64,000 nucleotides of DNA from a virus. Under the pieces are notes generated by a model. The model searched no databases. It saw only the letters and a program-made list of their open reading frames with translations, and was not told the origin of the DNA. Of this stretch, positions 44,601 to 62,742 are shown in pieces (the first letter of the stretch is position 1; the number at the start of each line of letters is the position of its first letter). The stretch lies in the IMG/VR virus record IMGVR_UViG_3300021185_001231. The stretch is one strand, 5' to 3'. Both the position numbers and the translations under genes were made by a program.

Positions 44601-45580
44601 TAAGACCTGTTAAAAGTAGTGAAGCCTACTTTAGATATAGAAGAACCATTATTATAAAAAAGTACAATTCTTTCTCGTTCAGCATTAACAAGAACATAGT
44701 ATGCTGTGCCTGGTATTACAGCCATAATAGCTTTTTTACTAACAGCTTCTCCCAGCATATAGGCCCAATTATTAGATCCAGTCGCAGCATCAGAATTAAA
44801 AGAGTAATGTACAGTAGTTTCTAGTGACATTGGATCAGGGGTTACAGCAGAAATTTTTATCTTTTCTTGTCCATAGTTACTACTCTTTTCACTGGCCATT
44901 ACAATTAATTGATTATTCACAGTATCCCAATCCATGAACATGGCTCTTTTATCAATATTCGTACCTAAACTAGTATAGGTTTCATTCATGTCGGGTATAT
45001 TAGATGATATCTGTGTAACCTTTCCAGTAGATGTTAAAGCAACCGCGCTTCCACTAGTAACAGTACCAAACGCTTCATAGGTTTGAGTACCAATTGTATT
45101 TTCTAAAGCGGTTAAGTCTGCTTGTGTAGCAGCATTGTCAGCTTTAGTACCCTGTGCGGCAGTCGCAAAAGATGTGATCGCAGCTGTCGCGGCAGTTCCT
45201 AGACCAAGATTTGATCTAGCAGCAGCGGCATCGGCAACGTCACTTAAGTTGTTTGCAGCGTTTAATTTTGTGTTTAGTGCGTTCGTCATTGACGTTGCGA
45301 AATCCGCATCATCTCCGAGTGCCGCAGCTAATTCGTTTAATGTGTCTAAGGTCGCTGGTGCGGAGTCTGCAAGAGCAGAGACAGCAGTAGTGACAGCACT
45401 ATCAATTGAACCTTGGTCAACACCCTGTGCGACAGTAGCGTCAATCATGGCTTGAACGGCAGTTTGATACGATGCTTCGTTTAGTACGCCATCAGCACCA
45501 ACAATGTTGATACCATTAACGAAAACTTCACCAGCAACGTCTAAACCGTTCTGTATTCTAAATTTCTTTTCTGAACTCAT
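35657..45580 (-). CDS. giant modular tail-fibre/adhesin-like protein (3307 aa)
   Basis: Seven APxxLDTLNELAAALGDD fibre repeats and DLSGYSTTxEMN repeats separating about five beta-rich, propeller-like domains. Confidence 0.75.
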   Translation of the reverse strand: MSSEKKFRIQNGLDVAGEVFVNGINIVGADGVLNEASYQTAVQAMIDATVAQGVDQGSIDSAVTTAVSALADSAPATLDTLNELAAALGDDADFATSMTNALNTKLNAANNLSDVADAAAARSNLGLGTAATAAITSFATAAQGTKADNAATQADLTALENTIGTQTYEAFGTVTSGSAVALTSTGKVTQISSNIPDMNETYTSLGTNIDKRAMFMDWDTVNNQLIVMASEKSSNYGQEKIKISAVTPDPMSLETTVHYSFNSDAATGSNNWAYMLGEAVSKKAIMAVIPGTAYYVLVNAERERIVLFYNNGSSISKVGFTTFNRSYTNQLQHAVVDGELHLFYRQNGVGPGDENNSNVMGTKISVYNGELIIGTEYTLYSAASNQSDFENYFLGLGTNQSYYSLPERTTVLTIDGQDWMFMLHNGKQITAIKVDVSNEQLSFGDAKQYDYTSRTSGNYHIDTSIGDNGGITGGWISYSAYSGNIVVPMKSWSSNTYIRAMVLEFDSSGDLVEKSFISKLINDTGNQSYNSIAVATSSLSDTVTFMYGRQYNSDNGWGYVLGSIDSSGSWTVTEEWRGGAHTYSDTSNGSSTSFVVFDGPELNGHSVFLRNNSGSRVYGNEVKAHVSRMTPVSNTAQWIGIATSTQADGENVQVAIKNSSTTVLTGLSVGSTYYVQDDGSVTTTESDYIAGLALTSGKLLLEGTDLSPYATTAELAATLSQAQAYTDSGVSGVDLSGYSTTAEMNTAIANADVDLSGYSTTTEMNTAISNVSVDLSGYSTTTEMNSAITAEVANVVDAAPAALDTLNELAAALGDDANFASTVTTSLADKASQVDLTAETTRATSAETINNQAIAILQNQVSGISTSSGSTDIEMQANVDMATNKISNLGTPTSGTDAATKAYVDSAVSSADVDLSGYSTTAEMNTAIDNVTVDLSGYSTTSEMNSAITAEVANVVDAAPAALDTLNELAAALGDDANFASTVTTSLATKADDAATTAALATKADASAVATSAQGALADTAIQPVDLTTGFGTNTVTSSDWSANGTFSAGTLGLTITDNMIGSQYGADATRMRTNDSTHFSIYAQGKVSGIQTKTIQVLDKDLNKVWDVNVGDDDPTMVMDETYAAWIKASTDTAYIHNLSDGSLVNSFPVTSGNYNVAHAIYGTKFLTAYINQMYIYDIATGNLDATIALPGSATNANSNEGHKLRKILVQGNKAFISDFFYGAASNSMVPDGAVYVVDLSTNTVVQTITAPGVSQRKFGGQMAIDRTLNHLAVTRYHAAPAGDNYNDSQGAIVEVFSTEDYSHIATINTTQYDAAKPHMSSYLAVRGGRIFIGADNSVQSKTIKAYNISDGQQSGTFACFENGNVEVIIVGDTLITYSQKRFFSSVAQTGTTTTSFVVDDSLFATKAYVDSGVAGVDLSGYSTTSEMNTAISAIPSTDLTPYSTSTEMTSAIATAKTEAQTYADQVVASTVDAAPAALDTLNELAAALGDDANFASTVTSSIATKADDAATTAALATKSDQTDLDTLESLIKGQDVVGTSILISAPYAEHSDGTQRAGQTYLYNAADTSSPVLTIESADPREWMAQGSNDKPYSTTINQYGFVAIGDHNYTGGGRVSIFNPDGSLLQNLLPSSPNSSLNENFGKTVVWSESGDRLFVAAKNEDSNAASGDKVEGAIYAYTVNYSNDNQNLNFSSPTKLSPSRNFNALGGNQWFGENNSSIVSVGRKLYVGFVSYDGSTQNQGRVYIYNIDDLNASPTEIATQSNTHGNSFGSSVAANSTHWAAVAYSGASGTPEVIHIFNSSNNQLIGTIQKPNIETNDNWIQYIEMTDSHIISIGAGLSGSDNNGMYVWPLSSISSQPTYVARYGSSSDGFNVHAKSVSAKGNIILLGYHEFNDGNVNGQLHIYDVNDLSTPQKVLNQPFSTINESRFGMSASIGYTMTSPAAALETVATEITPAINELRSEISALSGTDTSLTDSISANASAIAAETAARTAAIAAIPSTDLSDYSTTAEMNTAITAEVANVVDAAPAALDTLNELAAALGDDANFASTVTTSLASKADDAATTAALATKADGAATTTALATKADVTTVTAIEDFLNGNVSDVTPEAVPLTKISPISSGSSHSDRFGSNMIITNDYVIVAADNYGSDQHGQVFVYDKNNTESVPSVIEMQNESSLINTQYGPSFGENMVWSENTKTLACSWSTSVSSSNTGGIQFFDVTDRNNISMKHQYLGSTDDKLKVRANTDGKFIATSKTNVSGSQLLLWDENSLSASPTVFVSPTGVSWGKRVVAGEGRMYVFEQATSTWYEYDVATLTLQSTITNSGNSYYGVIGGGKFISWSPNTIANVYEFGSNVRTAIDLGGNPSNALHATSSHLYIGSIKSDQYGALGTDEGVLKVYDLSDLNATPVTISTAQSFYGYFGGITADDETLYITEYDGSGSSSPKGINRWDVSSLAGGFSLQSDLESLVSVETSAREIAIAAETSARETAITSAISTASADATSKADQAEVDAKAYADQVVAATVDAAPAALDTLNELAAALGDDANFASTVTTSLASKADDAATTTALDGKATTAQGAKADTAVQPEDFWSLADGSTTTYTVDWSATDYQPDSGKQTQSFYKRDDIDDIRDAVDVRTSPNGNVVAVFNNWVGSGIPSNTDISYTVRVYNASGVEIREYDMGSIVRQSNNDLYGALSIGEKLVSAEITDTHVFIAYSYSSNGAGYKVYSIDDLDTAIGGHRSHSKLFTVDYNTITAGGNQNGVYAFIRSVGNDKLIVTNQSNYGSRGEFGATNWVTQEEISLPWLPVVNPQYISCDVHSASGWVYVAGRMQSDPNIRGYNFDTGATHVIPYSTFGHWLKGPNPGTQGDVSSKTVSVGSKYIVIVDSNSNAGHDYPDSYGDNPALVYEVGTDNLVATIPRPSSVMRWGASPTQTVTATNGDAVIIPGSNVGDYNNKKAYIFDMASSDKTVATNSWDLEQGVSSGNKSYTYIDVSDNHEILVAEHKGVWKSDGPTVAINTPSVDASTIASKVYVDNVVAATDGRTAGISVDSDSNIALSVGIEMGQNNIKDVNDVYANRGFIDTIESNDLKVQTGTVDFEGSIVNFGSSTIIGSGFGTATKAEVDAHLNIPTANAGEFVKWNGTDYEWTELLSGRLATDQLQVASGGSISITGPGGTFDFQDGIVMLSGSDVRVDTPTDVGQAANKGYVDGVVAATVDAAPAALDTLNELAAALGDDANFASTITNSLATKANTADVATAAQGAKADSALQPGDAVSLTVDNSEKLDGQQSSHFRIDIYDINGNIVN
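35850..45362 (-). repeat. seven dispersed near-identical coding repeats (APAALDTLNELAAALGDDANFAS)
   Basis: Copies near 35900, 37970, 39470, 41130, 42680, 43160 and 45340, with high DNA identity. Confidence 0.9.
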
Positions 45581-45667: not shown

Positions 45668-48600
45668 TTATGCATCGATGTACGTAGCAACGACTGTTAC
45701 CTTAGTACTCTCAGCATTAGCAGTGTAAGTCAATTCAATGTCGCCAGTACCCGAATTAACACGTACATCTGTATCACCCAAAGTAGTGGAACCTGTGAAG
45801 ATTACACCATACTCAGTGATGAAGGCAGAAGTACCGTTATGGACTACTAGACATTCACGTGTTTCGAACTCTTGTCCGTCTGGAGACTCAATAGATACCA
45901 AGTACTTAGCGGATCTGTGATTCGCTTTAGGGAATGAAGAAACCACAGCTTCGACAGTACCGACAGTTCGTTGTGCACCCTGTTCACCGACTTTAATGTC
46001 TGCGGTGAATGATGAAGTAGAAACTGAACCATCAAGAACACCTTGTACAGCACCGACAGAGTGAGAGATGATAACTGCCTGAGCACCATTAGGAATCGGA
46101 GCAGTAAATACAATCTCTTGTGCAACCGAATCAAAGTTATAGTGTGTGCCTGGATCCTGAATAACACCACCAACGAATACTAGAGCGTCTGCAATATTTA
46201 CATAGAATGTAATTGCGAAGTTAGTCTGTACTCCATCACCATTCATAACTTGACGATTAGGTTGTACGAATTGAAGATCATTCGGGTGGATAAAGTCCCA
46301 ACCGGATTCATCAGACTTAACTTGCATTAAGTACTCAGCTTTACCGACATAAGTAGTTTCTGATATATCATCCAACTCAAGTAGAGTACCAGCAGTATCA
46401 ATAGCGATAACACCAGTAGTATTATCGTAAGAAACTCTTCCGTTACCTTTAGTATCAACCGCACTAATAGATTCTCTTGAACGAGCTTCAGTAAAGTATC
46501 TGTTAGATGCATTCGGATCTTCTACAAGATCACTCGTGTCAAACTGCGAGATGTGTTGTGCAGCAAGACCAGCGTCCATTTGACCCTTGTTAACAGCGTC
46601 AGAAGCGACAGTACCATCAGCTACAGCAGCAACCTTGTTTGAACCCATGTTCAATACACCAGACATAGTGTCGCCAGACTTGGCAACCTTTTGATCGATG
46701 TTTGACTGAAGAGTCGTGTCCGCAGAAGATCGTGCGGATGCTTCAGCAGATACAGCAGCTGCTCTATCAGTGATCTCTTGTGCAAGACCAGAAGCGTTAG
46801 TTGCGATGTCAGTTTGGTTAGAAGAGATAAGTGAAGTTAGATCACTATCTGCGTCACCAAATGCGGTAACAATCTCTGTCAATGAATCCAAAGCAGCGGG
46901 ATCAGTGTTAGAAACGATGAAGTCTACTCGTGCGTTTACAGCTGCTTCAGCAGTCTGTGCACGTGTCGCTTCGTCAGAGATAGAAGTAGCGTTAGTTGCA
47001 ATATTTGCAGCATTTGCTTGTTCAGCTGAAGTAGCACGACCAACTTCCGCAGTAATCTGTGATTGCAGACTTGCGTCACCTGAAGTTCTAGAAGAGATTT
47101 CTGAGTTCAAGTTATTAGTTAGTGTATTATCCGCAGCGATACGTGCAGTTTCTTCTGCCTTAAGTGCAACGTCTAACTTGGTAGACTCGTCCTTAAGTGA
47201 TACCGCAGTATCTAAGAAGTTAGAACCTGAACGTGATAGGTAAGCACCATCAGTAGCAACACCGACAGAAGTTTGAGTTAGAGTCATTTCTGATTCTAAA
47301 GTAGTTGCTCTAGTGTCTAATGCGTTATCAGCATTCGCTCTTGTTGTAGCTTCAGCGGTGATTTGACCTTCAAGTAGATCGTCAGCAGCTTCTCTTGTTG
47401 AAGCTTCAGTAGCAACGATTCCGTCAGAATAAGTCTTAGCGGCCGCTTCAGCATTATCTGCTTTAGTCGTCGCATCTGAAGATGCAGAGTTTAATACAAC
47501 GGCATCGGCAGTTGCGAAATCACTACGGATTGAAGTATCAGCAGCAGCAAAATCGCCACGAATCGAAGTTTCTTCAGCTTGTGCACGGGCAGTCTCCGTA
47601 GAAATGGCAGTTGCGTTAGTTACAATAGAAGATTCGGCAGTAGTCATTCGACCAGCTACCGCATTTGTATCTGTATGCAATTCGTTTACCGCACCAGCGA
47701 GATCATTCGCAACTGTGTCAAGTGAAGTACCTTCACCAACAAATGCTTCTAGATCATCGATTTCACTTTCAGCAGCATCCATCTCTGTCTCTAGAGTAGT
47801 AGCGCGTGCTTCGACAGCATCCATTTCAGATTCTAGTGTAGTAGCGCGTGCTTCTACAGCATCCATTTCTGTGTTCAGAGTTGAGATAGAAGATTCGTTT
47901 GTGGTCAATCGTGAAGAGTTATTATCGATAACAACTTGCATATCACTGTCAGCATTCTCATATGCGCCAATGATTTCAACTAATGTATCTAATGTTTCCG
48001 GAGCAGCATTTACTAAGAAGTCTACTCGACCTTCGACGATGTCTAAATCTGTTTGAATTGCAGCATCAGCGGCAATACGTGCAGAAGTCTCATCAGCGAC
48101 GGCAGTAGTAAGAACACCTTCAGCTGCGATAGCACGAGCAACTTCAGAGTTGATGCTTGCAGCATTAGTTGCAATGCTACCAGTGTTTGTATCAACGTCA
48201 GTTCTTAGACCAGCTTCTACACCAGTTGCACGTGTAACTTCCTGTGCAAGTGAAGCATCAGTGGCAGAGTCAGCTGCGATTCTTGCAGTTTGTTCTGCGA
48301 GAAGATCAGCGTCATGTTGAGTATCAGCAGCCGCACGAGTGACAGCTTCTGCATCAATGTTACCTTGGAGAGTAGCATCAGCAGAAACACGAGCAGTAGT
48401 CTCGGTAGCGATGTCTGAAGTATTTGCATCGATATCTGTCTCAGCAGTATCCATACGACCTTCTAGGTTAGTAGCGCGTAGAGATAGTGCGTCATCACCA
48501 GAAACTCGTAATGCAGTTTCAGCAGCAACAATAGTGTCTGCATGAGTTTCCGCAGTAGTTTTTGCAGTTGCAATACGTGCGGTAACAGTATTTCCGCCAG

Positions 48601-50284
48601 TTCCGTCTACAGAAGCATCACCAATAAATAGTGCATCTTTAGTTTCTGCGTGAGACTTAGCGGAAACTTCTGCCTCATCTGCTTTAGTAGTTGCGTCGAC
48701 GGCAGCAGCCGCTTGAACCGCAGTATCACCAGCAGCACGATCAACAAGTTCTTGCGCAAGACCAGAAGTCAAAGTTGCATCAGCAGTTGCACGAGTTGAC
48801 GCTTCGGTGTCAATGTTTGACTGAAGAGTCGTATCAGCAGAAGTTCTAGCAGAAGCTTCATTTGAAATAGCAGTGGTGTTTGATGAAATCAAAGCGCCCA
48901 TATCGGTATCTGCTTGTTGGAAAGCAGCAACGATTTCTGTTAATGAGTCAAGAGCAGCTGAGTCAGTATTAGAGATAACATTATCTAGTTTAGATTCGAT
49001 TCTAGACTCCTCAGAAGTAGCACGAGAAACTTCGGATGTTAAGTCTGATTGTAGAGTAGAGATCTCACCATCATTAGAAGTGATCTGAGTTTGTAGTCCG
49101 GATTCAGCAGTTTCAGCACGAGTCTTCTCAACCAATACCTTAGCAGCAGCGTCAGCAGCTGCGACAGATTCAGCACCTGATTTGGCAGTTGCAATACGTG
49201 CAGTAATAGTATTTCCACCAGTTCCATCTACACTGTTATCTCCAATAAGAAGATCGTCATGTGATTGAGCAGATACTAGAGTTGCATTATCACCAGCAAC
49301 GATGTCTGCACCTAGGTCAGAACGTACCGCATTATCAGCGATAGCACGTGCAGAAATTTCTGCCGCAAGACCTTGAGCGTTAGCTTCTTCAGCAGCGGTT
49401 GCACGAGTAACCTCAGCAGAAACTGAATTCTGTAGAGCAGTTACTTCACCATTTGTAGTTGAGATTTCGGCAGCTAGATCAGTTTCCAGTTGCGTTATAT
49501 CACCCTCAGCAGTAGTCATACGTGCATCTAGAGCATTATCAGCAGAAACACGAGCCGCAGATTCGTTAGTTATGTTTGTTTGTAGAGTTGTGTCCGCACC
49601 TTGTCTTGCAGTAGTTTCTGAAGCGAGGTTGGCTTCGATTGTGGACTCTTTAGTAGTCGCACGTGAAACTTCATTCGAGATAGCAGTTGCGTTAGTAATG
49701 ATTGAAGCAGATAATGCATCATCAGCATCTTGGAATGCAGTAACAATTTCCGCAAGAGAGTTAAGTGCTTCCGAGTCAACATTAGACAATACATTATCAA
49801 TACGAGTATTGATTGCTGTGTCCGCAGACTGGAATGCAGATTCCATTGCGTTTTCTCTATTGGTAGCACGAGTAACTTCAGTGTCCAAAGAGGTTTGTAG
49901 TGCAGTATCAGCAGCAGTTCTTGCCGCAGTTTCAGCTGCAAGATCAGAAGTTAAAGTTGTATCCGCAGCAGCACGTATTGTCGCTTCAGCGGCAACGGCA
50001 TCAGCAATATCCTGAGCGACAGCGGCTTTAGCACGAACGTCTGTGAAGTAAAGGTTAGAATTTGATTCAGTACCTTCTGATATGTCATCGGTAGTATAAG
50101 AACCGATAAGACCAGATGAAGATACTTTCTTAAGTGCTTGTGTGTCGTTATCAAAAACGAGGAATGTGTCAAGACCGTCAACTCCTGAGAGAGAGGCCTG
50201 TTGATCAATTGCGGAGGTATCTAGTTTGGTATTTAATACCGCTTGATTTGCTAGAGCTCCGGATTTAATTTGCCTAAATGCCAT
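45668..50284 (-). CDS. long coiled-coil fibre protein (1538 aa)
   Basis: Recurring E.T.R..AD..L helical repeats, four L(D/N)(S/T)L.EI..A(F/Y)..AD nodes, C-terminal RSAKYLVSI...ECLVVHNG...EYG domain. Confidence 0.7.
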   Translation of the reverse strand: MAFRQIKSGALANQAVLNTKLDTSAIDQQASLSGVDGLDTFLVFDNDTQALKKVSSSGLIGSYTTDDISEGTESNSNLYFTDVRAKAAVAQDIADAVAAEATIRAAADTTLTSDLAAETAARTAADTALQTSLDTEVTRATNRENAMESAFQSADTAINTRIDNVLSNVDSEALNSLAEIVTAFQDADDALSASIITNATAISNEVSRATTKESTIEANLASETTARQGADTTLQTNITNESAARVSADNALDARMTTAEGDITQLETDLAAEISTTNGEVTALQNSVSAEVTRATAAEEANAQGLAAEISARAIADNAVRSDLGADIVAGDNATLVSAQSHDDLLIGDNSVDGTGGNTITARIATAKSGAESVAAADAAAKVLVEKTRAETAESGLQTQITSNDGEISTLQSDLTSEVSRATSEESRIESKLDNVISNTDSAALDSLTEIVAAFQQADTDMGALISSNTTAISNEASARTSADTTLQSNIDTEASTRATADATLTSGLAQELVDRAAGDTAVQAAAAVDATTKADEAEVSAKSHAETKDALFIGDASVDGTGGNTVTARIATAKTTAETHADTIVAAETALRVSGDDALSLRATNLEGRMDTAETDIDANTSDIATETTARVSADATLQGNIDAEAVTRAAADTQHDADLLAEQTARIAADSATDASLAQEVTRATGVEAGLRTDVDTNTGSIATNAASINSEVARAIAAEGVLTTAVADETSARIAADAAIQTDLDIVEGRVDFLVNAAPETLDTLVEIIGAYENADSDMQVVIDNNSSRLTTNESSISTLNTEMDAVEARATTLESEMDAVEARATTLETEMDAAESEIDDLEAFVGEGTSLDTVANDLAGAVNELHTDTNAVAGRMTTAESSIVTNATAISTETARAQAEETSIRGDFAAADTSIRSDFATADAVVLNSASSDATTKADNAEAAAKTYSDGIVATEASTREAADDLLEGQITAEATTRANADNALDTRATTLESEMTLTQTSVGVATDGAYLSRSGSNFLDTAVSLKDESTKLDVALKAEETARIAADNTLTNNLNSEISSRTSGDASLQSQITAEVGRATSAEQANAANIATNATSISDEATRAQTAEAAVNARVDFIVSNTDPAALDSLTEIVTAFGDADSDLTSLISSNQTDIATNASGLAQEITDRAAAVSAEASARSSADTTLQSNIDQKVAKSGDTMSGVLNMGSNKVAAVADGTVASDAVNKGQMDAGLAAQHISQFDTSDLVEDPNASNRYFTEARSRESISAVDTKGNGRVSYDNTTGVIAIDTAGTLLELDDISETTYVGKAEYLMQVKSDESGWDFIHPNDLQFVQPNRQVMNGDGVQTNFAITFYVNIADALVFVGGVIQDPGTHYNFDSVAQEIVFTAPIPNGAQAVIISHSVGAVQGVLDGSVSTSSFTADIKVGEQGAQRTVGTVEAVVSSFPKANHRSAKYLVSIESPDGQEFETRECLVVHNGTSAFITEYGVIFTGSTTLGDTDVRVNSGTGDIELTYTANAESTKVTVVATYIDA

Positions 50285-53355: not shown

Positions 53356-53712
53356 TTACCTCGTTACTGACGGATTGACTTTTATCTTACCTTCGAGTAT
53401 TCTTTCTATCATAGTCGCACCATCTTCGTCCACATATGACAATTCGACATCATACACGTAACGACCACGACTAGATAGACTATCGGTTTGGATGTTTGAT
53501 AAGGATATGACTACGATACCATCCGTAGGAGGATCAGCGATAACCGAAGTGAAATCTAAGGTCTCTGAAACATCGCTATTGTAGTTTCTTTTTAGTTTTG
53601 CGTTTACAGAATGTCCTGTTAAGTTTTTAACTGAACCATCAGTATCAACAAGCTCCAATTCTAGTGCAATGTCTGCACCTTGGTCTATTGCAAAATCTTC
53701 ATATGTCGCCAT
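53356..53712 (-). CDS. baseplate/fibre-associated Ig-like protein (hypothetical)
   Basis: IDQGAD, LTG, GRYVYDVE, RILEG.I.V.PSVT pattern common in T4-like structural modules. Confidence 0.6.
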   Translation of the reverse strand: MATYEDFAIDQGADIALELELVDTDGSVKNLTGHSVNAKLKRNYNSDVSETLDFTSVIADPPTDGIVVISLSNIQTDSLSSRGRYVYDVELSYVDEDGATMIERILEGKIKVNPSVTR

Positions 53713-53793: not shown

Positions 53794-54501
53794 TTATTCT
53801 TCCGATGAGATGTCGGCAATAACCATTTCGCGGAATTCTTCTGAAGCCTGTTCCGTATTAAATGTATACGAAACGGTTGTTCTCCAGTTATCAGTATCCG
53901 CAGCGTGATACAATAATTTATCATCTTCACTATAATGTCCAAAGTAAGCAGCTTTACAGGTCCATTGACCAGCTTCATCTTCACACACCACCTCTTCTTT
54001 AGTAACAGGATGTATGTATTTGAAACAACCTTCACCGAACTCTGACCAAGTAAAGATAAGGTTAAATGCAGCTGCATTAGCATTATTGTGCCAAGAGATA
54101 AACCCGCCTGGAGGATAAATCGCACAAAGTGCATTGTTTCTTACTGACAAAAAATTCATCATTTTATCGTTAAGATCTGCTAAGTTTTTAGTAAGATCTC
54201 TTTTAAACACGGGGTCAGCATCCTTAGTAAATATCTGATGATTTCTTTCACCTAATTTTAGATTATAACCAACCAATTGTTCAGGAAATCCTTCATGTCG
54301 AGTTCCCTGTGAAATTATTTCGTGTCTATGGTTGTCCCCAACCCAGTAAGGACGTTGTCTAGCATGTTCTGATGCTGATAAATGTACTTTATCCTCAAAA
54401 CCTTCTAGAGTATGTAGTTTGGTGTATCCGTCAAGAATCTCCAACAACTCTGGGTTATTGATTGGCACATGTTTTAAATATTCGTCGTTAATCTGTGTCA
54501 T
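53794..54501 (-). CDS. 2OG-Fe(II) oxygenase-like protein (HxN variant)
   Basis: YPPGGFISWHNNANA, YHAA, RTTVS; clear paralogue of 22371..23009. Confidence 0.55.
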   Translation of the reverse strand: MTQINDEYLKHVPINNPELLEILDGYTKLHTLEGFEDKVHLSASEHARQRPYWVGDNHRHEIISQGTRHEGFPEQLVGYNLKLGERNHQIFTKDADPVFKRDLTKNLADLNDKMMNFLSVRNNALCAIYPPGGFISWHNNANAAAFNLIFTWSEFGEGCFKYIHPVTKEEVVCEDEAGQWTCKAAYFGHYSEDDKLLYHAADTDNWRTTVSYTFNTEQASEEFREMVIADISSEE

Positions 54502-55223
54502 ACGATTGGTTTATCCTTGTTAAGTCCAGCAGAAAAGTGTCTGATAATAACTTCACCTTTCGGTCTAGTTCTCGCCCAATTAAGAGCGTTGTAGTAATTC
54601 CACCTTAAATCGTCTTCAAATATTCCGATATTAAGGTCTTTGTATTTTTCTTCCTTTTCAGTAAGCCACCACAATGAGAATTGATCCCAAGATTTGAGAC
54701 TATCCGCATAACCTTCTGGCCACCATTGATCGGCCATTTGTTTTTTAGTCAATTCCCACCAATCATCCATAAACTCTCGAATAATTGGTTTTCTCATGTC
54801 ATATAAACAAACTGCACCACATAAAGTAAATTTCGCCTTTCCTTCTGGGGTATCAAAATCACGTTCTGCATAAATATAATCCCGATCATCGGTAAGTTCT
54901 GACCAGACCATATCATAGTCTTTTAGTTCATCCCATACCTTCGCAATATCTTCGTGTTCCACTTCCATGTCAGCATCAATATACATGGTAATATCATAAG
55001 GAGATTTTGCCATACCATATAATTTAGCTCTATAGTGGTCATCACAAAGGATTAAATCATCTGCAACTTCTTCTCGACCATCCAGAAAGCGTTCTTCTGT
55101 AACCAAACAAATCTTTGCTTCTTCATAGACATCTCTAATAGATTCGCATAGATTTATTGCATACAAATAAAAGTTACGGTTCCTTGAAGCAACAACAATA
55201 AAACCTTTAGTTGGTTCTGTCAT
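54498..55223 (-). CDS. GT-A fold glycosyltransferase
   Basis: K....SPYDITMYIDAD (DxD), WDQFSLW, RWN, IIRH motifs typical of nucleotide-diphospho-sugar transferases. Confidence 0.75.
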   Translation of the reverse strand: MTEPTKGFIVVASRNRNFYLYAINLCESIRDVYEEAKICLVTEERFLDGREEVADDLILCDDHYRAKLYGMAKSPYDITMYIDADMEVEHEDIAKVWDELKDYDMVWSELTDDRDYIYAERDFDTPEGKAKFTLCGAVCLYDMRKPIIREFMDDWWELTKKQMADQWWPEGYADSLKSWDQFSLWWLTEKEEKYKDLNIGIFEDDLRWNYYNALNWARTRPKGEVIIRHFSAGLNKDKPIV

Positions 55224-55672
55224 TATTCTGCCTCATTCAAAGATTCTTGTAGAATCATGATTGACCACATATCAACTTCAATTCGAGACTTAGCTCTGCG
55301 AAGTTTTGCTTTTAATTTGCGATTGGTTGAATTTTTAATTTCTTCAACTTCAAAAGCTTCGAGTTTATAGTTAAACAACTTTTCTAACTTACGTGCTTTT
55401 GCGTGTTCTTTATCACGTTGAACGTGTTCTTCTTTTTCAGCTTTCTTCCGTTCAACTCTATCTTCGGTTTCTTTGTCGATAACGTCTTCGCCTAATGCAT
55501 CGACTACTTCATCAAAGTCTGGATTTGCATTACCTTCTTTGTCGGTCCTATTGAGTAACATGACCTGACGAGTCATCCTACCAACATCATCTTCCATTTC
55601 TAGGATACAATTTAACTGAGACTTGTCATCATTTTCCCAGAAAGCATTATCCATCCAACGTTTAAAACTCAT
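55223..55672 (-). CDS. hypothetical charged helical protein (possible chaperone)
   Basis: AGGAG RBS; small N-terminal alpha/beta part plus highly charged helical C-terminus; coupled to the GT gene. Confidence 0.6.
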   Translation of the reverse strand: MSFKRWMDNAFWENDDKSQLNCILEMEDDVGRMTRQVMLLNRTDKEGNANPDFDEVVDALGEDVIDKETEDRVERKKAEKEEHVQRDKEHAKARKLEKLFNYKLEAFEVEEIKNSTNRKLKAKLRRAKSRIEVDMWSIMILQESLNEAE

Positions 55673-55760: not shown

Positions 55761-58700
55761 TTAAGCTACTCTTACATATAGAGTGTAAGTTTCTACTGTA
55801 GAACTTGAACCCTGAATCGTAAGACCAGTATAGTTACCCACAAAGTTACGTGAGAAATCACCTATAAAGTTTCTTGAATAATTACTAACTAAATTTCTTG
55901 AGTAATTACCTGTGTAGTCCCCTGCGAAATCTCTACTAGATACCCTAGTGGATACTGAAGTATATGAAGAAGCTCTAACTCCAGTATAGGAAGAAATTCT
56001 GGTTCTGATAAAGTCGTCGGTACTATTTCTAGTGTACTCCCCAGTAAACCCTCTACTGAAGTTACTAACATAGTCTAGAACGTAAGAAGACATTCTTGTT
56101 CTAGAGTATTCACCAGAGAAATCTCTTGAGTAGTTACCCACAAAACCTCTTGAGTAATTACTTACAAAGTTTCCAGCATAAGTAGAAACTCTATCTCTTG
56201 AGTAATTACTTACAAAACCTCTTGAGTAATTACTTACAAAGTTTCCAGCGAACTCACTTGCATATTCTCCTGCGTATTCTCCAACGAATTCACGAGAGTA
56301 ATTTCCGACATATGAACTACTTCTTACTTGAGCGAAATCACCAACAAAGTCTCTTGAATAATTACCTTCAAAGTTTCTAGAGTATGCGCCAGTATACTCG
56401 CCCACAAATCCGCGAGAGTATGTACCAGCATATTCACCGGCAAAGTCTCTTGAGTACTGTCCAGTATACTCGCCAATAAAGTTCCTAGAGTAAGCACCAG
56501 TAAATTCACCGGCAAAGTCTCTTGCATAGTTACCAGTATAAGAATCGGTTATGTTTCTAGAGTAAGCACCAACATATTCACCAACGAAACCTCTTGAGAA
56601 ATTACCGACATAAGAATCAGTTATGTTCCTAGAGTAAGCACCAGTAAATTCACCGGCAAAGTCTCTTGCATAGTTACCAGTATAAGAATCGGTTATGTTT
56701 CTAGAATATGTTCCGGCATATTGACCAGAGAAATCTCTTGAGAAATTACCGACATAAGAATCAGTTATGTTTCTGGAATATGTTCCGGCATATTGACCAG
56801 AGAATCCTCTTGCATAGTTACCGACATAGGGATCGGTTATGTTTCTGGAATATGTTCCGGTATATTGGCCAGAGAAATCTCTTGAGTAATTACCGACATA
56901 GGGATCGGTTATGTCTCTAGCGTAGTTGCCTACATAGTTACCAGCATAACCTCTTGAATAGTTTCCTACATAGTTACCACCAAAACCACGAGCATAATTT
57001 CCTACATAATCCCCTGCGTAGTATGCAGTGTATGTACCAGTGTACTCTCCAATAAAGTTCCTCGCATAGTTACCAGTAAATGTCCTTGCATAGTTACCAC
57101 CGAAGTCTCCAGCGAAGTTAGTTACACGATCTCTAGTGTATGTAGAAGCCCTTCCTCTGGTATAGGTAGAATAACGAGTACGTGCATAAGCGGAGTAACG
57201 TGTTCTCGTAGAGGTTCTAGCATATTCCCCCACATAGTTACCAGCGAAATCTCCAGCGTATGTACGTGAATAGTTACCTACAAAATTTCCGGTAAATGTG
57301 GTCGCATAGTTACCCAAGAAATCACCAGTAAAGTTAGTGACTCGGTTTCTTGAATAATCACCAGCAAAATTACCAGTAAATGTAGTCGCATAGTTTCCTA
57401 CAAAGTTACCTACATAGTTTCCACCAAAGGCACGTGAATAGTTACCTACAAAGTCACCAGTAAATGTTGTAGCGTAGTTACCAACAAAATCGCCAGCGAA
57501 GTTAGTTACACGATCTCTTACATAGTTACCTACGTAATCCCCAGCATAATAACCTATTCTAGTATATGTACCAACCCTAGTATAATCTGCTGAGTATGAA
57601 TTTGTATAATTACCAGTAAAGTCTCCAGTATAAGCTAAAGTGCTTGATCTTACAGGAGTTCTACTGTAATATCCGGTATATGTTGAACTACGAGGAAATG
57701 CTGTTGCAGGATCCCGTGTGTATGTAGAATTCCTAGTGTAATTTATCTGAGTGTCTCTTGTGTATGTAGAATCCCTAGTGAAATTTCTTGTACTAGTTCT
57801 AGTGTAGTATAATGTTGCTGGTCTAGTTCTGGTATAATATAAGTTTCTGGTATAATTACCGACATAGTTTCTGGAATAAGAGACGGTCGCATTACGTGTG
57901 CGTGTGTAAGTACCTCCCGCTAAAGTAGAAATTCTGGTATAATTGCCTGGGTAATTAGAGTTGGCCGTACTTACTCGAAAACCAGCAAAATAACTATATG
58001 TCTGCGCGGCAGTAGAAGAGTTGGGCATGTCATCCAAAGACCAACGAACACCACTTGATGCATGTTTAAAGTATCGAATTGGTCCTACATCAAAATAGGT
58101 CACGTGTTCAGCGGTAGTATAATTTGAGTAGTACTGTTGTTTCCTTAATACACCGTTGGTATATACTTTAATAGTTATACCACTAGATCCCCCGTATCCG
58201 TAATGTAACTGCCATGAGTTATAATTAAATTGATAATCCCAAGGACTATTATTTGCCCAACCAGTATAGTTTCCGGTAAAACTTTGTGTTCCGCCATAGT
58301 TTCCTACATACTGATTAGTACGGTTAAATGAAGCAGTACGAGTTCTGGTGTAGTCTCCTGTTCTAGCGTAATCTCCAGTGTAATTTACTAATAAGGAATA
58401 ATCACCGACAAAACTGTTAGCGAAAGTTAAACCCGTAGTATAGTTACCACCATAAAAGTTAATGGACGTTATAGTTCTATTATAGTTTCCGGTATATTTT
58501 ACGTAATTAACAAAAGTTCTAGAGTAGTTTCCGACAAAAGTATCTACGCGAGAATATGTAGAAACTCTAGAAAAACTAGTGTCTCTCTCACGAGTAAAGT
58601 TCCTAGAATAATTTCCAGTGAAATAAAGATTTCTATTATACCCTAGGGTCCGTGTTGAAGTTCGGGTAGAAGTACTTGCATAATCTCCTACAAAGTTACC

Positions 58701-61700
58701 AGCAAAGTTTGTAACTCTATTTCTTGAAAAATCTCCAACGTAATTTGTGATACGTGTACGTGCATAAGCTGAATAACGAGTTCTACTGTAATCTGTTGCA
58801 CGAGTCCTAGCAAAATCTCCAACGTAGTTTGTTACACGAGTTCTTCCGTAATTACCTGTGAAGTCTCCAGCATAATTCGTTATACGAGTCCTAGCAAAAT
58901 CTCCAACGTAATTTGTGATACGAGTCCTTGCATAAGCAGAGTAACGAGTTCTAGTAGATGTACGAGTAGAAGTTCTCGCATAATTACCGACATAGTTACC
59001 AGCAAATCCTCTTGAATAGTTACCAACAAAGCCTCTGGCATAATTACCAGTAAAGTATGAAGTATAGTTACCAACAAAATTACCAGCAAAATTAGTTACT
59101 CGGTTGCGGGTGTAAACCGATACTCTTGATCTAGAATAAGCGGAATTACGAGTACGAGAATATGTACCGTCAAAATTCTGTGTCATAGTTCTAGTATAGT
59201 TTGCTGAATATGTAGAAATTCTATTTCTTGTGTAATCACCAGCATAAGCAGAAACTCTATTTCGAGCAGAAGTTCTTGCATAAGTGGAAACTCTCTGTCT
59301 CGTGTAGTTAGCTGCATAAGCAGAAACCCTGTTTCGAGAATAAGTTCCAGCGTAAGTGGAAGATCTTTGTCTAGTGTAATTATCTGAATACGTTGAAATT
59401 CTATTTCTTGAGTATGTTCCGGTATATGCAGAAGATCTTTCTCTCGTATAAGGTTGTGAGAATGCAGAAATTCTTGTCCTAGAATAAGTTCCGGAATAAG
59501 ATGAAGATCTTTGTCTAGTATAATCAACTACATAAGCAGAAACTCTTGTTCTAGAGTATGTGCCAGTGTAAGACGATGGTCTTTGTCTTGTGTAGTTAGT
59601 TGCATAAGCAGAAACTCTAGTTCTAGCATATGCACCAGTGTAAGAAGAGGCTCTTTGTCGTGTGTACGGAGCAGAATATGCAGAATTTCTTGTTCTTGCG
59701 TAAGTTCCAGAATATGCAGAATTTCTTGTTCTTGCGTAAGTTCCCGAATATGTAGAAATTCTAGTTCTAACGTAGGTTCCGGCATAAGAAGAGTTTCTTG
59801 TTCTGGTGTAAGTTCCAGCATACGATGAAGGTCTTCCACGAGTATAGGAAGATGTTCTGTTCCCAGTGTAATATGCAGTAAATCCTTGGTTTCTGGTTGT
59901 CGCATAAGAAGATACTCTTGCACGAGAGTAATAACCAGTGAAATTTGCAATAAAGGCGACAACAACGTCACGAGTGTATGTAGAAGGACGAGTTATTACA
60001 TATTCACCAGTAAAAGTTCTAGAAAAATTAGTTACTCGATCTCTGGTATATGTAGAACTTCTGTTTGTTGTGAAAGTGTTTGTGTAAACACCAGTATATT
60101 CACCAACAAAATCTCTAGAGTAGTTTCCGGTAAAGGGTGTTGTGTATGTGCTAGTCCTGACTCCGGAATAGTTACCTACAAAGTCACCAGTATAGTTACC
60201 AGCAAAATCTCTCGAGTAATTACCTTCAAAGTTTCTGGTATAGTTACCAGTGAAGTCTCCGGCATAGTTAACTGTAGATAATCTGGTAGAAATTCTAGAA
60301 TATGAAGAAACACGAGTTCTAGAATATGTAGAAGTTCTTGGTGTGGTATAAGTACTTGCGCGAGTTCTTGTATAACTTTGGTCTGAAACATCTTTTTTAG
60401 TGTTTAACGCAGTACCTACAGCTTTCCAAGTGCCCGGATCGGTGGGTGCACCTTGTGTGGATGATCGGAACTGATATGAACCAATGTTTCCGGCAGTAGC
60501 GCGAAGAGTTTGTATTCTTTGACCAAGAGTATATTGAATCTCTTCGTCGGTCATAACTTGTAGACCAGAGAAACTAGCAGGTCCTGTTGTGTAAGTTCCG
60601 ACATTTCCAGAAGACAAACCAGAACCTGTCCAACTCGTTCCCGAAATCTCAGTCAACAAATTACCGGAAAGATCATAAATATAAATTCTTCCAGCAGCTG
60701 AGTTGTATCTCCAATCAGAAGTAACAATATTATCACCAACAAAATAAACCTGATCACCAAAAGTATTATAACTATGTCCCGATCCACTAGGTTGGGTTAC
60801 TGTAGTTCCATTTTGAAGATCCAAACTATCGTATATTGCAAATTTTGGAGAACCGTTATCACCGAAGACTACCTTCCCAGAATCCTCATGATAGTCTATA
60901 GTAGATCCAAAGGAACTGAATCCAGCTGGAGACAAAGTTTGAGTATTTACAAGATCTTGATCAAAAAACTTAGCTCCACCAGAACCAATACCAAAGACCA
61001 TTCTTTCCCCAGATGAAAAAGGAAGTATTTTCGCTTCTTTACCGTTTGAATATGGATTAAATGTGAAAACTTTTAATTGATTAGATCCGTCTAAATCAAA
61101 TCTCCAAGTATAGTATCGACTATTTCCCCAAGCATAAACATAATTTCCCCAAAGTTTTACTCCCATCCCAAGCATCTCATTGACTTCAGGAGTATCATCA
61201 AATATTTCAACCATATTATTGCCATCTAAGTCATAAACATAAACCGCTCCATGTTGATTAAGACCCTGTGAACCGTTTCTACTAGCTCCTACTGCGATAT
61301 GTGTATCTGATACATCAATAGATGCAGCAAAACTATTATTATGTAAAGTGTTTCCGATTGCATCCGGAGCTAATATAGTATTGACTAAATTGCCGGAAAT
61401 ATCATAAATATTTACCTGACTTTGTCTATAATTTGCAACATATATTTTCTCACCAGAAAATTTAACAGTTTGTATTTGATCTGTGCCGGGATCTGTTATT
61501 GTAAAACGAACAGATCCGTCTGAGTTATGTATCTGTAGATCTCCAGCATTTCCATTACTAGAAAATGATGCAAATAAACCTTGACCATTAAATGTTGGAA
61601 CGCCAGTAGTGTTTTTTAATGTCATCGGACGAACAGTAGTGGGAGCTGCTACTGTAGTTTTTACGTACACATGGTAGGGAACGGAAGTTCCATCACCCTG

Positions 61701-62195
61701 TGTATCTGAGAATATGCTATCGATAAATACGTTGTAATCTACGCCAGGAGAAGTAGATGCCAGCTTAAATGTGCCGGGATAGTCTAAGTCTACAAGTTTT
61801 CCAATTACACGATTTGCCAGTGAGTCTAGATCCGCATCTACCATTTCGTAGAGGCCGGGAACATCGACATGACTGTAGTAACCTATAGGTCTCTTGAAGT
61901 TTGAACCTGACTCGTCTGCAACACCAGTTTTTTGATGAACTGTGGTTGTAGTTTCGCCAGATGTAATCTGTGATGCTGGGTGTGTTCCTGTGGTCTGATT
62001 GAAGAATGTATCTACAAAAGAACCAATAGGAGTAGCATCAGCAGAACTCAAACTAAGGTTACCTATTGCATCAGTTGAAGCTGATGTCAGATGTTGACTT
62101 ACACAGTACGCAAGATAGTTTTCTTCTATCGGGGAGTACTCATGTAAATCTGTACCTGAGTTTATAAGTTTTAAAGGTATACTCGATTTGGACAC
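55761..62195 (-). CDS. giant tetrapeptide-repeat 'hairpin' fibre protein (2144 aa)
   Basis: N-terminal repeated small domains and a propeller-like region, then about 1500 aa of (Y/F/R/S)xxx tetrads in two mirror-complementary arms around a unique centre; late promoter upstream; start codon is GTG. Confidence 0.75.
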   Translation of the reverse strand: MSKSSIPLKLINSGTDLHEYSPIEENYLAYCVSQHLTSASTDAIGNLSLSSADATPIGSFVDTFFNQTTGTHPASQITSGETTTTVHQKTGVADESGSNFKRPIGYYSHVDVPGLYEMVDADLDSLANRVIGKLVDLDYPGTFKLASTSPGVDYNVFIDSIFSDTQGDGTSVPYHVYVKTTVAAPTTVRPMTLKNTTGVPTFNGQGLFASFSSNGNAGDLQIHNSDGSVRFTITDPGTDQIQTVKFSGEKIYVANYRQSQVNIYDISGNLVNTILAPDAIGNTLHNNSFAASIDVSDTHIAVGASRNGSQGLNQHGAVYVYDLDGNNMVEIFDDTPEVNEMLGMGVKLWGNYVYAWGNSRYYTWRFDLDGSNQLKVFTFNPYSNGKEAKILPFSSGERMVFGIGSGGAKFFDQDLVNTQTLSPAGFSSFGSTIDYHEDSGKVVFGDNGSPKFAIYDSLDLQNGTTVTQPSGSGHSYNTFGDQVYFVGDNIVTSDWRYNSAAGRIYIYDLSGNLLTEISGTSWTGSGLSSGNVGTYTTGPASFSGLQVMTDEEIQYTLGQRIQTLRATAGNIGSYQFRSSTQGAPTDPGTWKAVGTALNTKKDVSDQSYTRTRASTYTTPRTSTYSRTRVSSYSRISTRLSTVNYAGDFTGNYTRNFEGNYSRDFAGNYTGDFVGNYSGVRTSTYTTPFTGNYSRDFVGEYTGVYTNTFTTNRSSTYTRDRVTNFSRTFTGEYVITRPSTYTRDVVVAFIANFTGYYSRARVSSYATTRNQGFTAYYTGNRTSSYTRGRPSSYAGTYTRTRNSSYAGTYVRTRISTYSGTYARTRNSAYSGTYARTRNSAYSAPYTRQRASSYTGAYARTRVSAYATNYTRQRPSSYTGTYSRTRVSAYVVDYTRQRSSSYSGTYSRTRISAFSQPYTRERSSAYTGTYSRNRISTYSDNYTRQRSSTYAGTYSRNRVSAYAANYTRQRVSTYARTSARNRVSAYAGDYTRNRISTYSANYTRTMTQNFDGTYSRTRNSAYSRSRVSVYTRNRVTNFAGNFVGNYTSYFTGNYARGFVGNYSRGFAGNYVGNYARTSTRTSTRTRYSAYARTRITNYVGDFARTRITNYAGDFTGNYGRTRVTNYVGDFARTRATDYSRTRYSAYARTRITNYVGDFSRNRVTNFAGNFVGDYASTSTRTSTRTLGYNRNLYFTGNYSRNFTRERDTSFSRVSTYSRVDTFVGNYSRTFVNYVKYTGNYNRTITSINFYGGNYTTGLTFANSFVGDYSLLVNYTGDYARTGDYTRTRTASFNRTNQYVGNYGGTQSFTGNYTGWANNSPWDYQFNYNSWQLHYGYGGSSGITIKVYTNGVLRKQQYYSNYTTAEHVTYFDVGPIRYFKHASSGVRWSLDDMPNSSTAAQTYSYFAGFRVSTANSNYPGNYTRISTLAGGTYTRTRNATVSYSRNYVGNYTRNLYYTRTRPATLYYTRTSTRNFTRDSTYTRDTQINYTRNSTYTRDPATAFPRSSTYTGYYSRTPVRSSTLAYTGDFTGNYTNSYSADYTRVGTYTRIGYYAGDYVGNYVRDRVTNFAGDFVGNYATTFTGDFVGNYSRAFGGNYVGNFVGNYATTFTGNFAGDYSRNRVTNFTGDFLGNYATTFTGNFVGNYSRTYAGDFAGNYVGEYARTSTRTRYSAYARTRYSTYTRGRASTYTRDRVTNFAGDFGGNYARTFTGNYARNFIGEYTGTYTAYYAGDYVGNYARGFGGNYVGNYSRGYAGNYVGNYARDITDPYVGNYSRDFSGQYTGTYSRNITDPYVGNYARGFSGQYAGTYSRNITDSYVGNFSRDFSGQYAGTYSRNITDSYTGNYARDFAGEFTGAYSRNITDSYVGNFSRGFVGEYVGAYSRNITDSYTGNYARDFAGEFTGAYSRNFIGEYTGQYSRDFAGEYAGTYSRGFVGEYTGAYSRNFEGNYSRDFVGDFAQVRSSSYVGNYSREFVGEYAGEYASEFAGNFVSNYSRGFVSNYSRDRVSTYAGNFVSNYSRGFVGNYSRDFSGEYSRTRMSSYVLDYVSNFSRGFTGEYTRNSTDDFIRTRISSYTGVRASSYTSVSTRVSSRDFAGDYTGNYSRNLVSNYSRNFIGDFSRNFVGNYTGLTIQGSSSTVETYTLYVRVA
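55833..60374 (-). repeat. 12-nt-period coding repeat array in two arms (58647-60374 and 55833-57548)
   Basis: Strict 4-aa periodicity; an identical block of about 80 nt recurs at 56481 and 56625 (144-nt spacing). Confidence 0.9.
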
Positions 62196-62234
62196 TGTAA
62201 TCTCGCTCTTTAGGTTAAGTTGATCATGTACCTT

Positions 62235-62242
62235 TATTTATA
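62235..62242 (-). promoter_or_regulatory. T4-type late promoter for the 2144-aa gene
   Basis: TATAAATA 40 nt upstream of the start. Confidence 0.8.
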
Positions 62243-62301
62243 CATTTTTAAATCACAGTGCGAGGATTTATTGAACCTTTTTTAACTTAATTTTACGAGA
62301 T

Positions 62302-62742
62302 TTATTCTGGTTGTGTGGGCCAGTTAACATCACTAACATTGCTTATGTCAGAAGAAACGAATGACAAATCACGAAGAGTTTGACGATAAGTTTGCCACTC
62401 AGATTTTTTTTCTTCTGGTAATGGTGAGTCTGACATTTGAGTCCAGTCACATCTATATAATAGATTATTACGAACATTTCTGACATCTACCATAACGTCT
62501 TCAAGATCCCAATCCCAAGAAGAACCATTCCACCTAGAGTATTTGTTTGGCGCGGCATCTCTTACTTTCCATTCGCCATCCCAATAACGAGTTTTTATAA
62601 ATTGTAATCTGTCCGCAATAGAAAAATCTATGTGGACTATAGTAGTGCCATCCTCTTGAAGACCTTCCGACGGATTGTCACCAGTCGATAACTTTAATGT
62701 TTTTATTTGACCATTTTCAATGACCGCTATATAATAAATCAT
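62302..62742 (-). CDS. tail fibre assembly chaperone
   Basis: R..RN.LL...DWTQ..D.P......W..YRQ.LRD......WP.QP signature. Confidence 0.85.
   Translation of the reverse strand: MIYYIAVIENGQIKTLKLSTGDNPSEGLQEDGTTIVHIDFSIADRLQFIKTRYWDGEWKVRDAAPNKYSRWNGSSWDWDLEDVMVDVRNVRNNLLYRCDWTQMSDSPLPEEKKSEWQTYRQTLRDLSFVSSDISNVSDVNWPTQPE

Follow-up and report, generated by a model that had tools for sequence, protein, structure and literature searches.

The 64,000-nucleotide stretch of viral DNA held as IMG/VR record IMGVR_UViG_3300021185_001231 (hereafter the window) contains an open reading frame (ORF) of 2144 amino acids that appears to encode a fibre protein whose two long repeat arms pair with each other in antiparallel orientation. 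Three lines of evidence support this fold-back reading, which had been put forward in an initial annotation: a single antiparallel register, compensating indels in homologues and the topology of the base domain. The pattern is real and strongly supported at the sequence level. We favour, with a probability of about 0.6, a single-chain, two-stranded beta-ribbon virion fibre with a swappable tip, for which we infer the geometry, the side-chain chemistry, the single-chain state, the location on the virion and the binding by the tip. The fold-back itself is nearly certain in our judgement, since this reading and two of the three alternatives weighed below include the pairing and only a very improbable one dispenses with it. 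The parts of the gene are as follows.

55761..62195, minus strand: whole ORF, 2144 aa, putative fold-back fibre protein; sequence reproduced in independent runs
61608..62195, minus strand: base domain, residues 1-196, comprising internal repeats 1 and 2 together with the first part of repeat 3 (from alignment, an AlphaFold model of the homologue P0001 and HHalign repeats)
60576..61607, minus strand: optional insert of ~345 aa, residues ~197-540 (Pfam FG-GAP_2, E 6e-4, below the cut-off)
60375..60575, minus strand: base repeat 3, residues 541-607, with helix, strand, GTW motif and the outgoing strand into the N-arm
58314..60374, minus strand: N-arm (outgoing strand), residues 608-1294; strict tetrads to ~1180, then less regular with the register unchanged
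57885..58313, minus strand: turn region, residues 1295-1437, including a non-repetitive tip of ~105 aa
55833..57884, minus strand: C-arm (returning strand), residues 1438-2121, assigned from the fold-back pairing
55764..55832, minus strand: conserved C-terminal strand, residues 2122-2144, predicted to complete base repeat 3; it aligns with the return strand of repeat 2

Antiparallel register and pairing code of the arms

The ORF had initially been divided into four-residue units, with two arms of 572 aa proposed to stay in register when one is read forward and the other backward. All the tetrad pairs quoted in that proposal were found at their rows, no indel occurs across the 143 rows, and the landmarks are correct (nt 60374 for the start of residue 608, nt 55833 for the end of residue 2121). 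The antiparallel pairing thus stood, and its extent had to be enlarged: the fold-back alignment gives a single ungapped antiparallel block of 684 pairs, in which residues 611-1294 face residues 2121-1438. As had also been claimed, the arms are not inverted repeats at the DNA level, the best reverse-complement identity being 0.34.

When the tetrads were sorted into crude classes, the mutual information between the arms showed the expected antiparallel peak, at offsets -1, 0 and +1 (z 10.5-12.4; next best 5.6). The expected sharpness was lacking with these classes: one parallel offset reaches z 9.4, and this test alone is therefore not sharp. A residue-pair code was then trained on 11 proteins from other clusters, outside the clade of the window, and applied to the window protein. 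This held-out code produced a single peak at offset 0 (score 0.21; other offsets -0.13 +/- 0.05; z 6.6), with the neighbouring offsets -1 and +1 scoring under the mean, in agreement with the prediction of one antiparallel offset. The peak is unique in the outer and the inner thirds of the arms, and the periodic middle third is degenerate every 3 tetrads.

At the level of single residues, the strongest register is i+j = 2732, which is the top of 141 sums in 10 of 17 segments along the arm and which, judging from the sequence, is probably the direct cross-strand register; the sum 2730 is likewise strong and may represent a diagonal contact. At 2732, the partner of Arg is Tyr in 84 cases, Gly in 40 and Arg in none, and across the family the same register holds 16 Arg-Arg pairs where 263 are expected, the favoured pairs being Arg-Tyr, Phe-Ser, Arg-Gly, Asn-Asn and Val-Val. 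Arg faces Asp only 6 times, and the 572-aa arms, which use Arg and no Lys, carry a net charge of +74; because of both facts, salt bridges are not the main pairing rule. The earlier description of Arg lying over Gly or acidic positions consequently holds for the Gly part and is weak for the acidic part.

The tetrads are composed of Tyr/Phe/Arg at position 1 and Gly/Arg/Ser at position 3, whereas positions 2 (Thr/Ser/Ala/Val) and 4 (Asn/Asp/Thr) are small or polar. In an antiparallel ribbon, alternate residues point to opposite sides, and cation-pi contacts and large side chains over glycine stabilise hairpins. Positions 1 and 3 of both strands would lie on one face, where large residues would meet complementary partners (Tyr-Arg by cation-pi contact, Arg or an aromatic residue over Gly, Phe over Ser), and positions 2 and 4 would form the opposite face. 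If the code sets the register in this manner, the length could change only by matched blocks in both arms. With 684 pairs at 0.33 nm per residue the ribbon would measure at most ~225 nm, and twist would shorten it; the former estimate of ~190 nm for a fully extended hairpin is raised to this upper limit.

Base domain, tip and resemblance to known fibres

The base domain was analysed using the AlphaFold model of P0001, a 397-aa homologue, in which the base has a pLDDT mostly of 85-98 and long strands occupy residues 242-269 and 366-395. The base consists of three internal repeats (HHalign probability 96% for repeats 2 and 3 and 91% for repeats 1 and 3; scores 49 and 38, respectively, against shuffled maxima of 12-14), and every repeat ends in a beta-hairpin. 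The turn of this hairpin is a few residues long in repeat 2; in repeat 3 it is occupied by the entire repeat region, and the C-terminal 15 residues form the return strand. The C-terminus therefore returns to the base, and this topology supports the fold-back independently of the code, because the repeat region replaces a beta-turn. The best structural matches of the P0001 model are three-fold beta-prisms of the MABP type (Z 6.0-6.9, rmsd 3.5-3.8, 110-122 aligned residues); as they span P0001 residues 40-397, the final strand is part of the base. For the inner arms and tip of the window protein (residues 1151-1581, 10 sequences), the mean pLDDT was 29.7, which is uninformative either way.

The MABP beta-prism (MVB12, Plu1415, MPEG1 P2) is made of three repeats of a three-stranded sheet with pseudo-three-fold symmetry (PMC2881412). 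The fibre base likewise has three internal repeats and pseudo-three-fold symmetry, whereas the identity is 6-8%, Pfam gives no match and each base repeat adds a helix; the likeness is probably one of shared arrangement. T4 gp10, gp11 and gp12 share a 'flower' fold, a helix and a three-stranded sheet with large insertions (PMC3004832; PDB 1EL6). A similar helix and sheet are probably present in the base repeats, and the gene also lies between baseplate and neck genes. Repeat 3 weakly matches the C-terminal domain of T4 gp11 (aligned to gp11 63-219; Z 3.0, rmsd 3.9, 49 aligned, 26% identity), the alignment including a GTW motif and RTA ends that are alike, and a protein of Klebsiella phage KP1 (Z 2.9); the collar-fold matches are weak overall (Z 2.7-3.0, 45-49 aligned, 22-27% identity). 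HHalign comparisons of the base with single T4 gp9-gp12 and fibritin sequences did not reach significance (probability under 2%). With Foldseek, PDB and viral models yielded no match at E below 0.001, and in the Atlas shape search the matches above TM 0.5 were all unnamed viral clusters. The link to the gp10/gp11/gp12 collar fold is only suggestive. Unlike the fibre protein, those T4 proteins are homotrimers with one unit per chain; the three units in one chain argue for a single-chain pseudo-trimer in which just one hairpin is extended. The terminal hairpin of gp11 has a short turn, at which the fibre family inserts up to 3000 residues.

We take PDB 2XGF to be the structure of the T4 long tail fibre tip. 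Its needle domains D10-D11 cover gp37 811-1026, and D10 is made up of residues 811-881 plus 1010-1026 (PMC6957217). The window protein is similar in that the chain leaves a collar-type domain, runs to the tip and returns to complete the domain. The gp37 needle differs in being a trimer with seven iron sites and an insert of ~130 residues, whereas the window protein combines 684 pairs and matched indels with a tetrad code, and carries its three collar-like units on a single chain. The His-x-His iron motifs of gp37 are absent from the arms of the window protein, where the 3 His among 1514 residues are all in the tip. We know of no repeat code in the gp37 needle. No family was found for the base, the arms, the tip or the whole protein when Pfam, PHROGs and PDB were searched by sequence, and neither the base nor the whole protein resembled any solved structure, gp37-type needle included, in sequence. 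In the open literature (subscription journals being outside this coverage) we found no paper on phage C48C1, the relative described below, or on such a fibre, and the initial annotation likewise knew of none with this architecture.

Rods of the SasG/Aap type consist of locally folding tandem domains read from N to C. They and other Periscope proteins are single-chain, length-variable spacers that project a binding domain (PMC4458895, PMC8201768). The fibre would resemble them in purpose, as a length-variable spacer, and differs in being two strands paired across up to 1500 residues.

On the reading that we favour, the protein would be a fibre of the virion that consists of a single, extremely long beta-hairpin. 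The three collar-like units at its N-terminus would together make up the base, a single-chain pseudo-trimer that probably attaches to the tail or baseplate; from the hairpin turn of repeat 3 the chain would run outwards for ~690 residues, form the variable ~105-aa tip and run back, and the last 15 residues would close the base. The ribbon would act as a spacer of up to ~225 nm, holding a swappable, host-surface-binding tip off the particle. The tip has 22% identity between the window and locus L003, while the arms are colinear for 703 residues at 86-89%, so that the hypervariable distal domain typical of the tail-fibre class is present. Comparison of the tip with receptor-binding families gave no match; the pattern of variation suggests a receptor-binding end on a spacer.

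The optional insert, probably a beta-propeller, is missing from the near-identical relative L003, and L002 has a different propeller-like sequence in its place. Large inserts at this base site were found in 5 of 93 complete proteins. The propeller-like inserts (in the window and in L001, L002, L076 and L094) differ between phages with near-identical base and arms, which suggests, from the sequences, a second swappable binding module.

Length changes in the family and competing readings

Searches with the base domain retrieved ~150 loci with 91 distinct complete proteins, and 461 clusters at 50% identity. The repeat regions range from 115 to 3057 aa. Compensation of indels between the arms, proposed earlier as a check, was observed in most close relatives. 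Between the two paralogues of L004 and locus L005, length changes of 32/32 and 60/60 aa affect both arms, and other near-identical pairs show matched indels of 176/176, 28/28, 24/24 and 4/4, all of these changes being at mirrored depth. In the short subfamily, with arms of 28-60 aa, 40 of 49 proteins are exactly balanced. The same register ranked first of 64 in 76/90 complete proteins, the code being pooled over those same proteins; of 33 additional proteins, retrieved by way of a neighbouring gene, 26 begin at this register, and in 20 the pairing forms one block (131-948 pairs).

The only full-length match in a GenBank phage is protein WJE88074 of C48C1 (OQ984149; L007 19950-30044, ~3347 aa), which is annotated merely as hypothetical. 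Judging from its sequence, it is a true homologue of the window fibre protein, and it is followed by the same downstream cassette. C48C1 and three other members carry non-repeat domains (45-270 aa) that protrude as loops from the C-arm, and the pairing of the N-arm continues unbroken; extra domains may thus be accommodated by one strand in the manner of an RNA bulge. The C48C1 homologue has six such inserts (~45-270 aa), all in the returning strand, and one stretch of ~65 aa is present twice, possibly as an assembly duplication. Matches in Synechococcus phage S-RIM2 were rejected as homologues, as they belong to a different threonine/glycine-rich low-complexity repeat.

Several observations weigh against the single-chain ribbon. 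A minority of the relatives is unbalanced: the arms differ by 44/0 in L124, the N-side exceeds by 20 aa in L118 and by 24 aa in L194, the C-side exceeds by 12 aa in L212, and 9 of the 49 short members are unbalanced, mostly by 12. These excesses are multiples of the repeat unit, and one balanced relative contains exact 29-nt repeats with a period of 36; the unbalanced lengths may be assembly errors in tandem repeats or tolerated intermediates. The strict code fits just 12 of 57 distant representatives, and a code-free test placed 20 of 55 within offsets -2 to -7 (~4.5 expected), with no sharp peak. Point substitutions between close pairs, which were few, peak nowhere at the register and cluster only regionally. 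The distal hairpin of the P0001 model has a pLDDT of 37-58, the arms being left with no confident structure, and the Z-scores of the beta-prism matches lie in a range that the tool calls common. Finally, we know of no precedent for a free two-stranded ribbon of this length, which may need partners for stiffness.

The unbalanced variants, together with the parallel offset at z 9.4, are what speaks for arms that fold separately, as a parallel beta-solenoid or a triple beta-helix, the mirror pattern being a by-product of repeat expansion. We regard this as very improbable and largely refuted. It accounts neither for the mirrored, matched indels and the held-out directional code nor for an insertion at a beta-turn whose two flanks must pair, and repeats inverted in the DNA are not at hand to explain the symmetry. 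The long-range mirror register and the matched indels equally distinguish the protein from beta-solenoid and triple beta-helix fibres.

A more serious alternative, although still a doubtful one, retains the fold-back and the code and bundles the hairpins, as a gp37-like homotrimer forming a six-stranded antiparallel needle, as a side-by-side pair, with a tandem paralogue as partner, or by arm swapping between chains. Covariation cannot separate pairing within a chain from pairing between chains, and the small-residue face of the ribbon could fill a narrow barrel. In addition, each base unit weakly resembles the collar-type domain of the trimeric gp11 (the match with 49 aligned residues cited above), and the gp37 needle is likewise inserted in a collar-type domain (PMC6957217). 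Of 147 fetched loci, 63 contain two family ORFs, arranged in tandem in those that were inspected. On the other hand, the three base units per chain would use up the three-fold axis by which gp10, gp11 and gp12 trimerise, the scarcity of His leaves no gp37-type iron ladder, the charge of +74 per chain disfavours tight packing, and the aromatic face carries most of the Arg and could presumably not be buried in a six-stranded core. Were the protein a trimeric needle, it would be a giant variant of the gp37 needle and not a new class.

In the tandem loci (L004 6788-14893, L005, L006, L014, L016, L023 and others) the shorter ORF is usually first, and some of the paralogue pairs have an identical tip sequence in both members.

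It is also conceivable, although quite unlikely, that the hairpin forms and does not project as an adhesion fibre, the cationic aromatic ribbon coiling up, lying along the capsid or tail, or binding DNA or polysaccharide lengthwise. The repeat region is positively charged in 76 of 90 complete members, up to +160, with Arg and no Lys in the arms of the window protein, and the tip matches no receptor-binding family. Against this, the architecture is unchanged in fourteen members that are neutral or acidic (down to -77), the range of repeat lengths (115 to 3057 aa) is what a spacer would show, and the hypervariable, exchangeable tip and the adjoining fibre chaperone gene suit a fibre. Distant members (P0196, P0201, P0244, P0252, L147 and L149) use other repeat alphabets, proline/glutamine-rich or strongly acidic, with the same base and C-terminus.

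Returning to the single-chain ribbon, we consider it roughly an even bet that the family represents a class of single-chain, two-stranded beta-ribbon repeat proteins of programmable length (~10 to >300 nm across the family), with the register set by a residue-level complementarity code, an evolution resembling that of RNA stems (paired insertions, bulge domains), a pseudo-trimeric base that descends from the collar fold of T4 and, maybe, decoration by a dedicated phage glycosylation and hydroxylation cassette. The newness would lie in the architecture, the likely job of a fibre with a variable tip being familiar. Known fibrous and repeat proteins gain length by local contacts or by wrapping several chains. 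In the fibre, residues up to 1500 positions apart would be in contact according to a readable code, and this code would be preserved in evolution by joint changes of the two halves. If confirmed, this would be a novel principle for constructing long protein rods and would offer a length-tunable nanoscale spacer, and it would supply tens of thousands of naturally occurring cross-strand pairs with which to examine the rules of beta-sheet pairing (cation-pi, aromatic over glycine). It also raises a folding question, because the first strand must wait for the last residues. The family indicates that an appendage of a widespread marine lineage of T4-like phages, as yet uncultured, has been overlooked.

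Genome setting and linked genes

The window comes from the genome of a T4-like phage. Downstream of the fibre gene and on its strand are the genes for portal, major head, terminase, sheath and neck proteins, and in relatives the fibre gene sits between baseplate genes and neck genes. The major head protein has 72% identity to that of phage C48C1, which is filed under Kyanoviridae in a record that gives no host, and <=62% to that of any other GenBank phage. The neighbouring features are listed below; the linkage counts refer to 85 loci with enough DNA, which are not all independent.

62302..62742, minus strand: tail-fibre assembly chaperone gene, directly upstream of the fibre gene (Pfam PF16778, E 4e-17; PHROG 4912)
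62235..62242, minus strand: T4-type late promoter TATAAATA, 40 nt upstream of the GTG start
55223..55672, minus strand: linked gene 1, 149 aa, no assigned function; downstream of the fibre in 84/85 loci
54498..55223, minus strand: linked gene 2, 241 aa, glycosyltransferase-like, with an invariant DxD; 84/85 loci
53794..54501, minus strand: linked gene 3, 235 aa, with invariant His138, Asn140, His199 and Arg207; 85/85 loci
53356..53712, minus strand: linked gene 4, 118 aa, tail-region protein, PHROG 1084/3304 (3304 annotated as tail fibre assembly); 82/85 loci

The late promoter, the position in the tail module and the neighbouring fibre chaperone, all features of the tail-fibre functional class, are present. 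The T4-type late promoter pattern has 15 matches in the window against 6.7 expected, and the chaperone gene is directly upstream of the fibre gene in 38 of 124 loci.

The fibre gene is not an assembly artefact, because its sequence is reproduced in an independent marine run, in which positions 56742-59701 are identical and positions 59715-62300 contain one difference; the inner arms and tip are matched exactly. In other runs the differences fall in the tip and the optional insert, and there is a 6-nt deletion in the turn region. DNA of the fibre gene was found in marine metagenome runs from about a dozen studies, and RNA contigs span parts of it, which is no proof of expression.

The product of linked gene 2 gave weak Pfam GT2 matches in 16 of 34 members (best E 3e-4), and a fibre C-terminus lies just upstream of the gene in 72 of 78 loci; in six loci (L222, L225 and L227-L230) no fibre C-terminus is recognisable directly upstream. 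C48C1 is alone among GenBank phages in having the fibre or the 241-aa glycosyltransferase-like gene in full. Linked gene 3 found no match in Pfam and PDB searches and is possibly 2-oxoglutarate/Fe(II) oxygenase-like, a lead from the Atlas search (0.87). One may guess that the cassette modifies the Ser/Thr/Asn face of the ribbon.

A single match was obtained among 185,579 prokaryote genomes, on a 70-kb contig (L235) in a Microbacteriaceae genome bin; this contig probably belongs to a phage and was binned there by mistake, and no host was named from it. In the window itself, a 3307-aa ORF (35657-45580, minus strand) has a domain that recurs about seven times and matches tail and tail-fibre families of PHROG (phrog_1197, 2631 and 7032), and positions 45668-50284 (minus strand) encode a 1538-aa alanine-rich, coiled-coil-like protein with a short motif repeated three times, in the region where T4 has fibritin.

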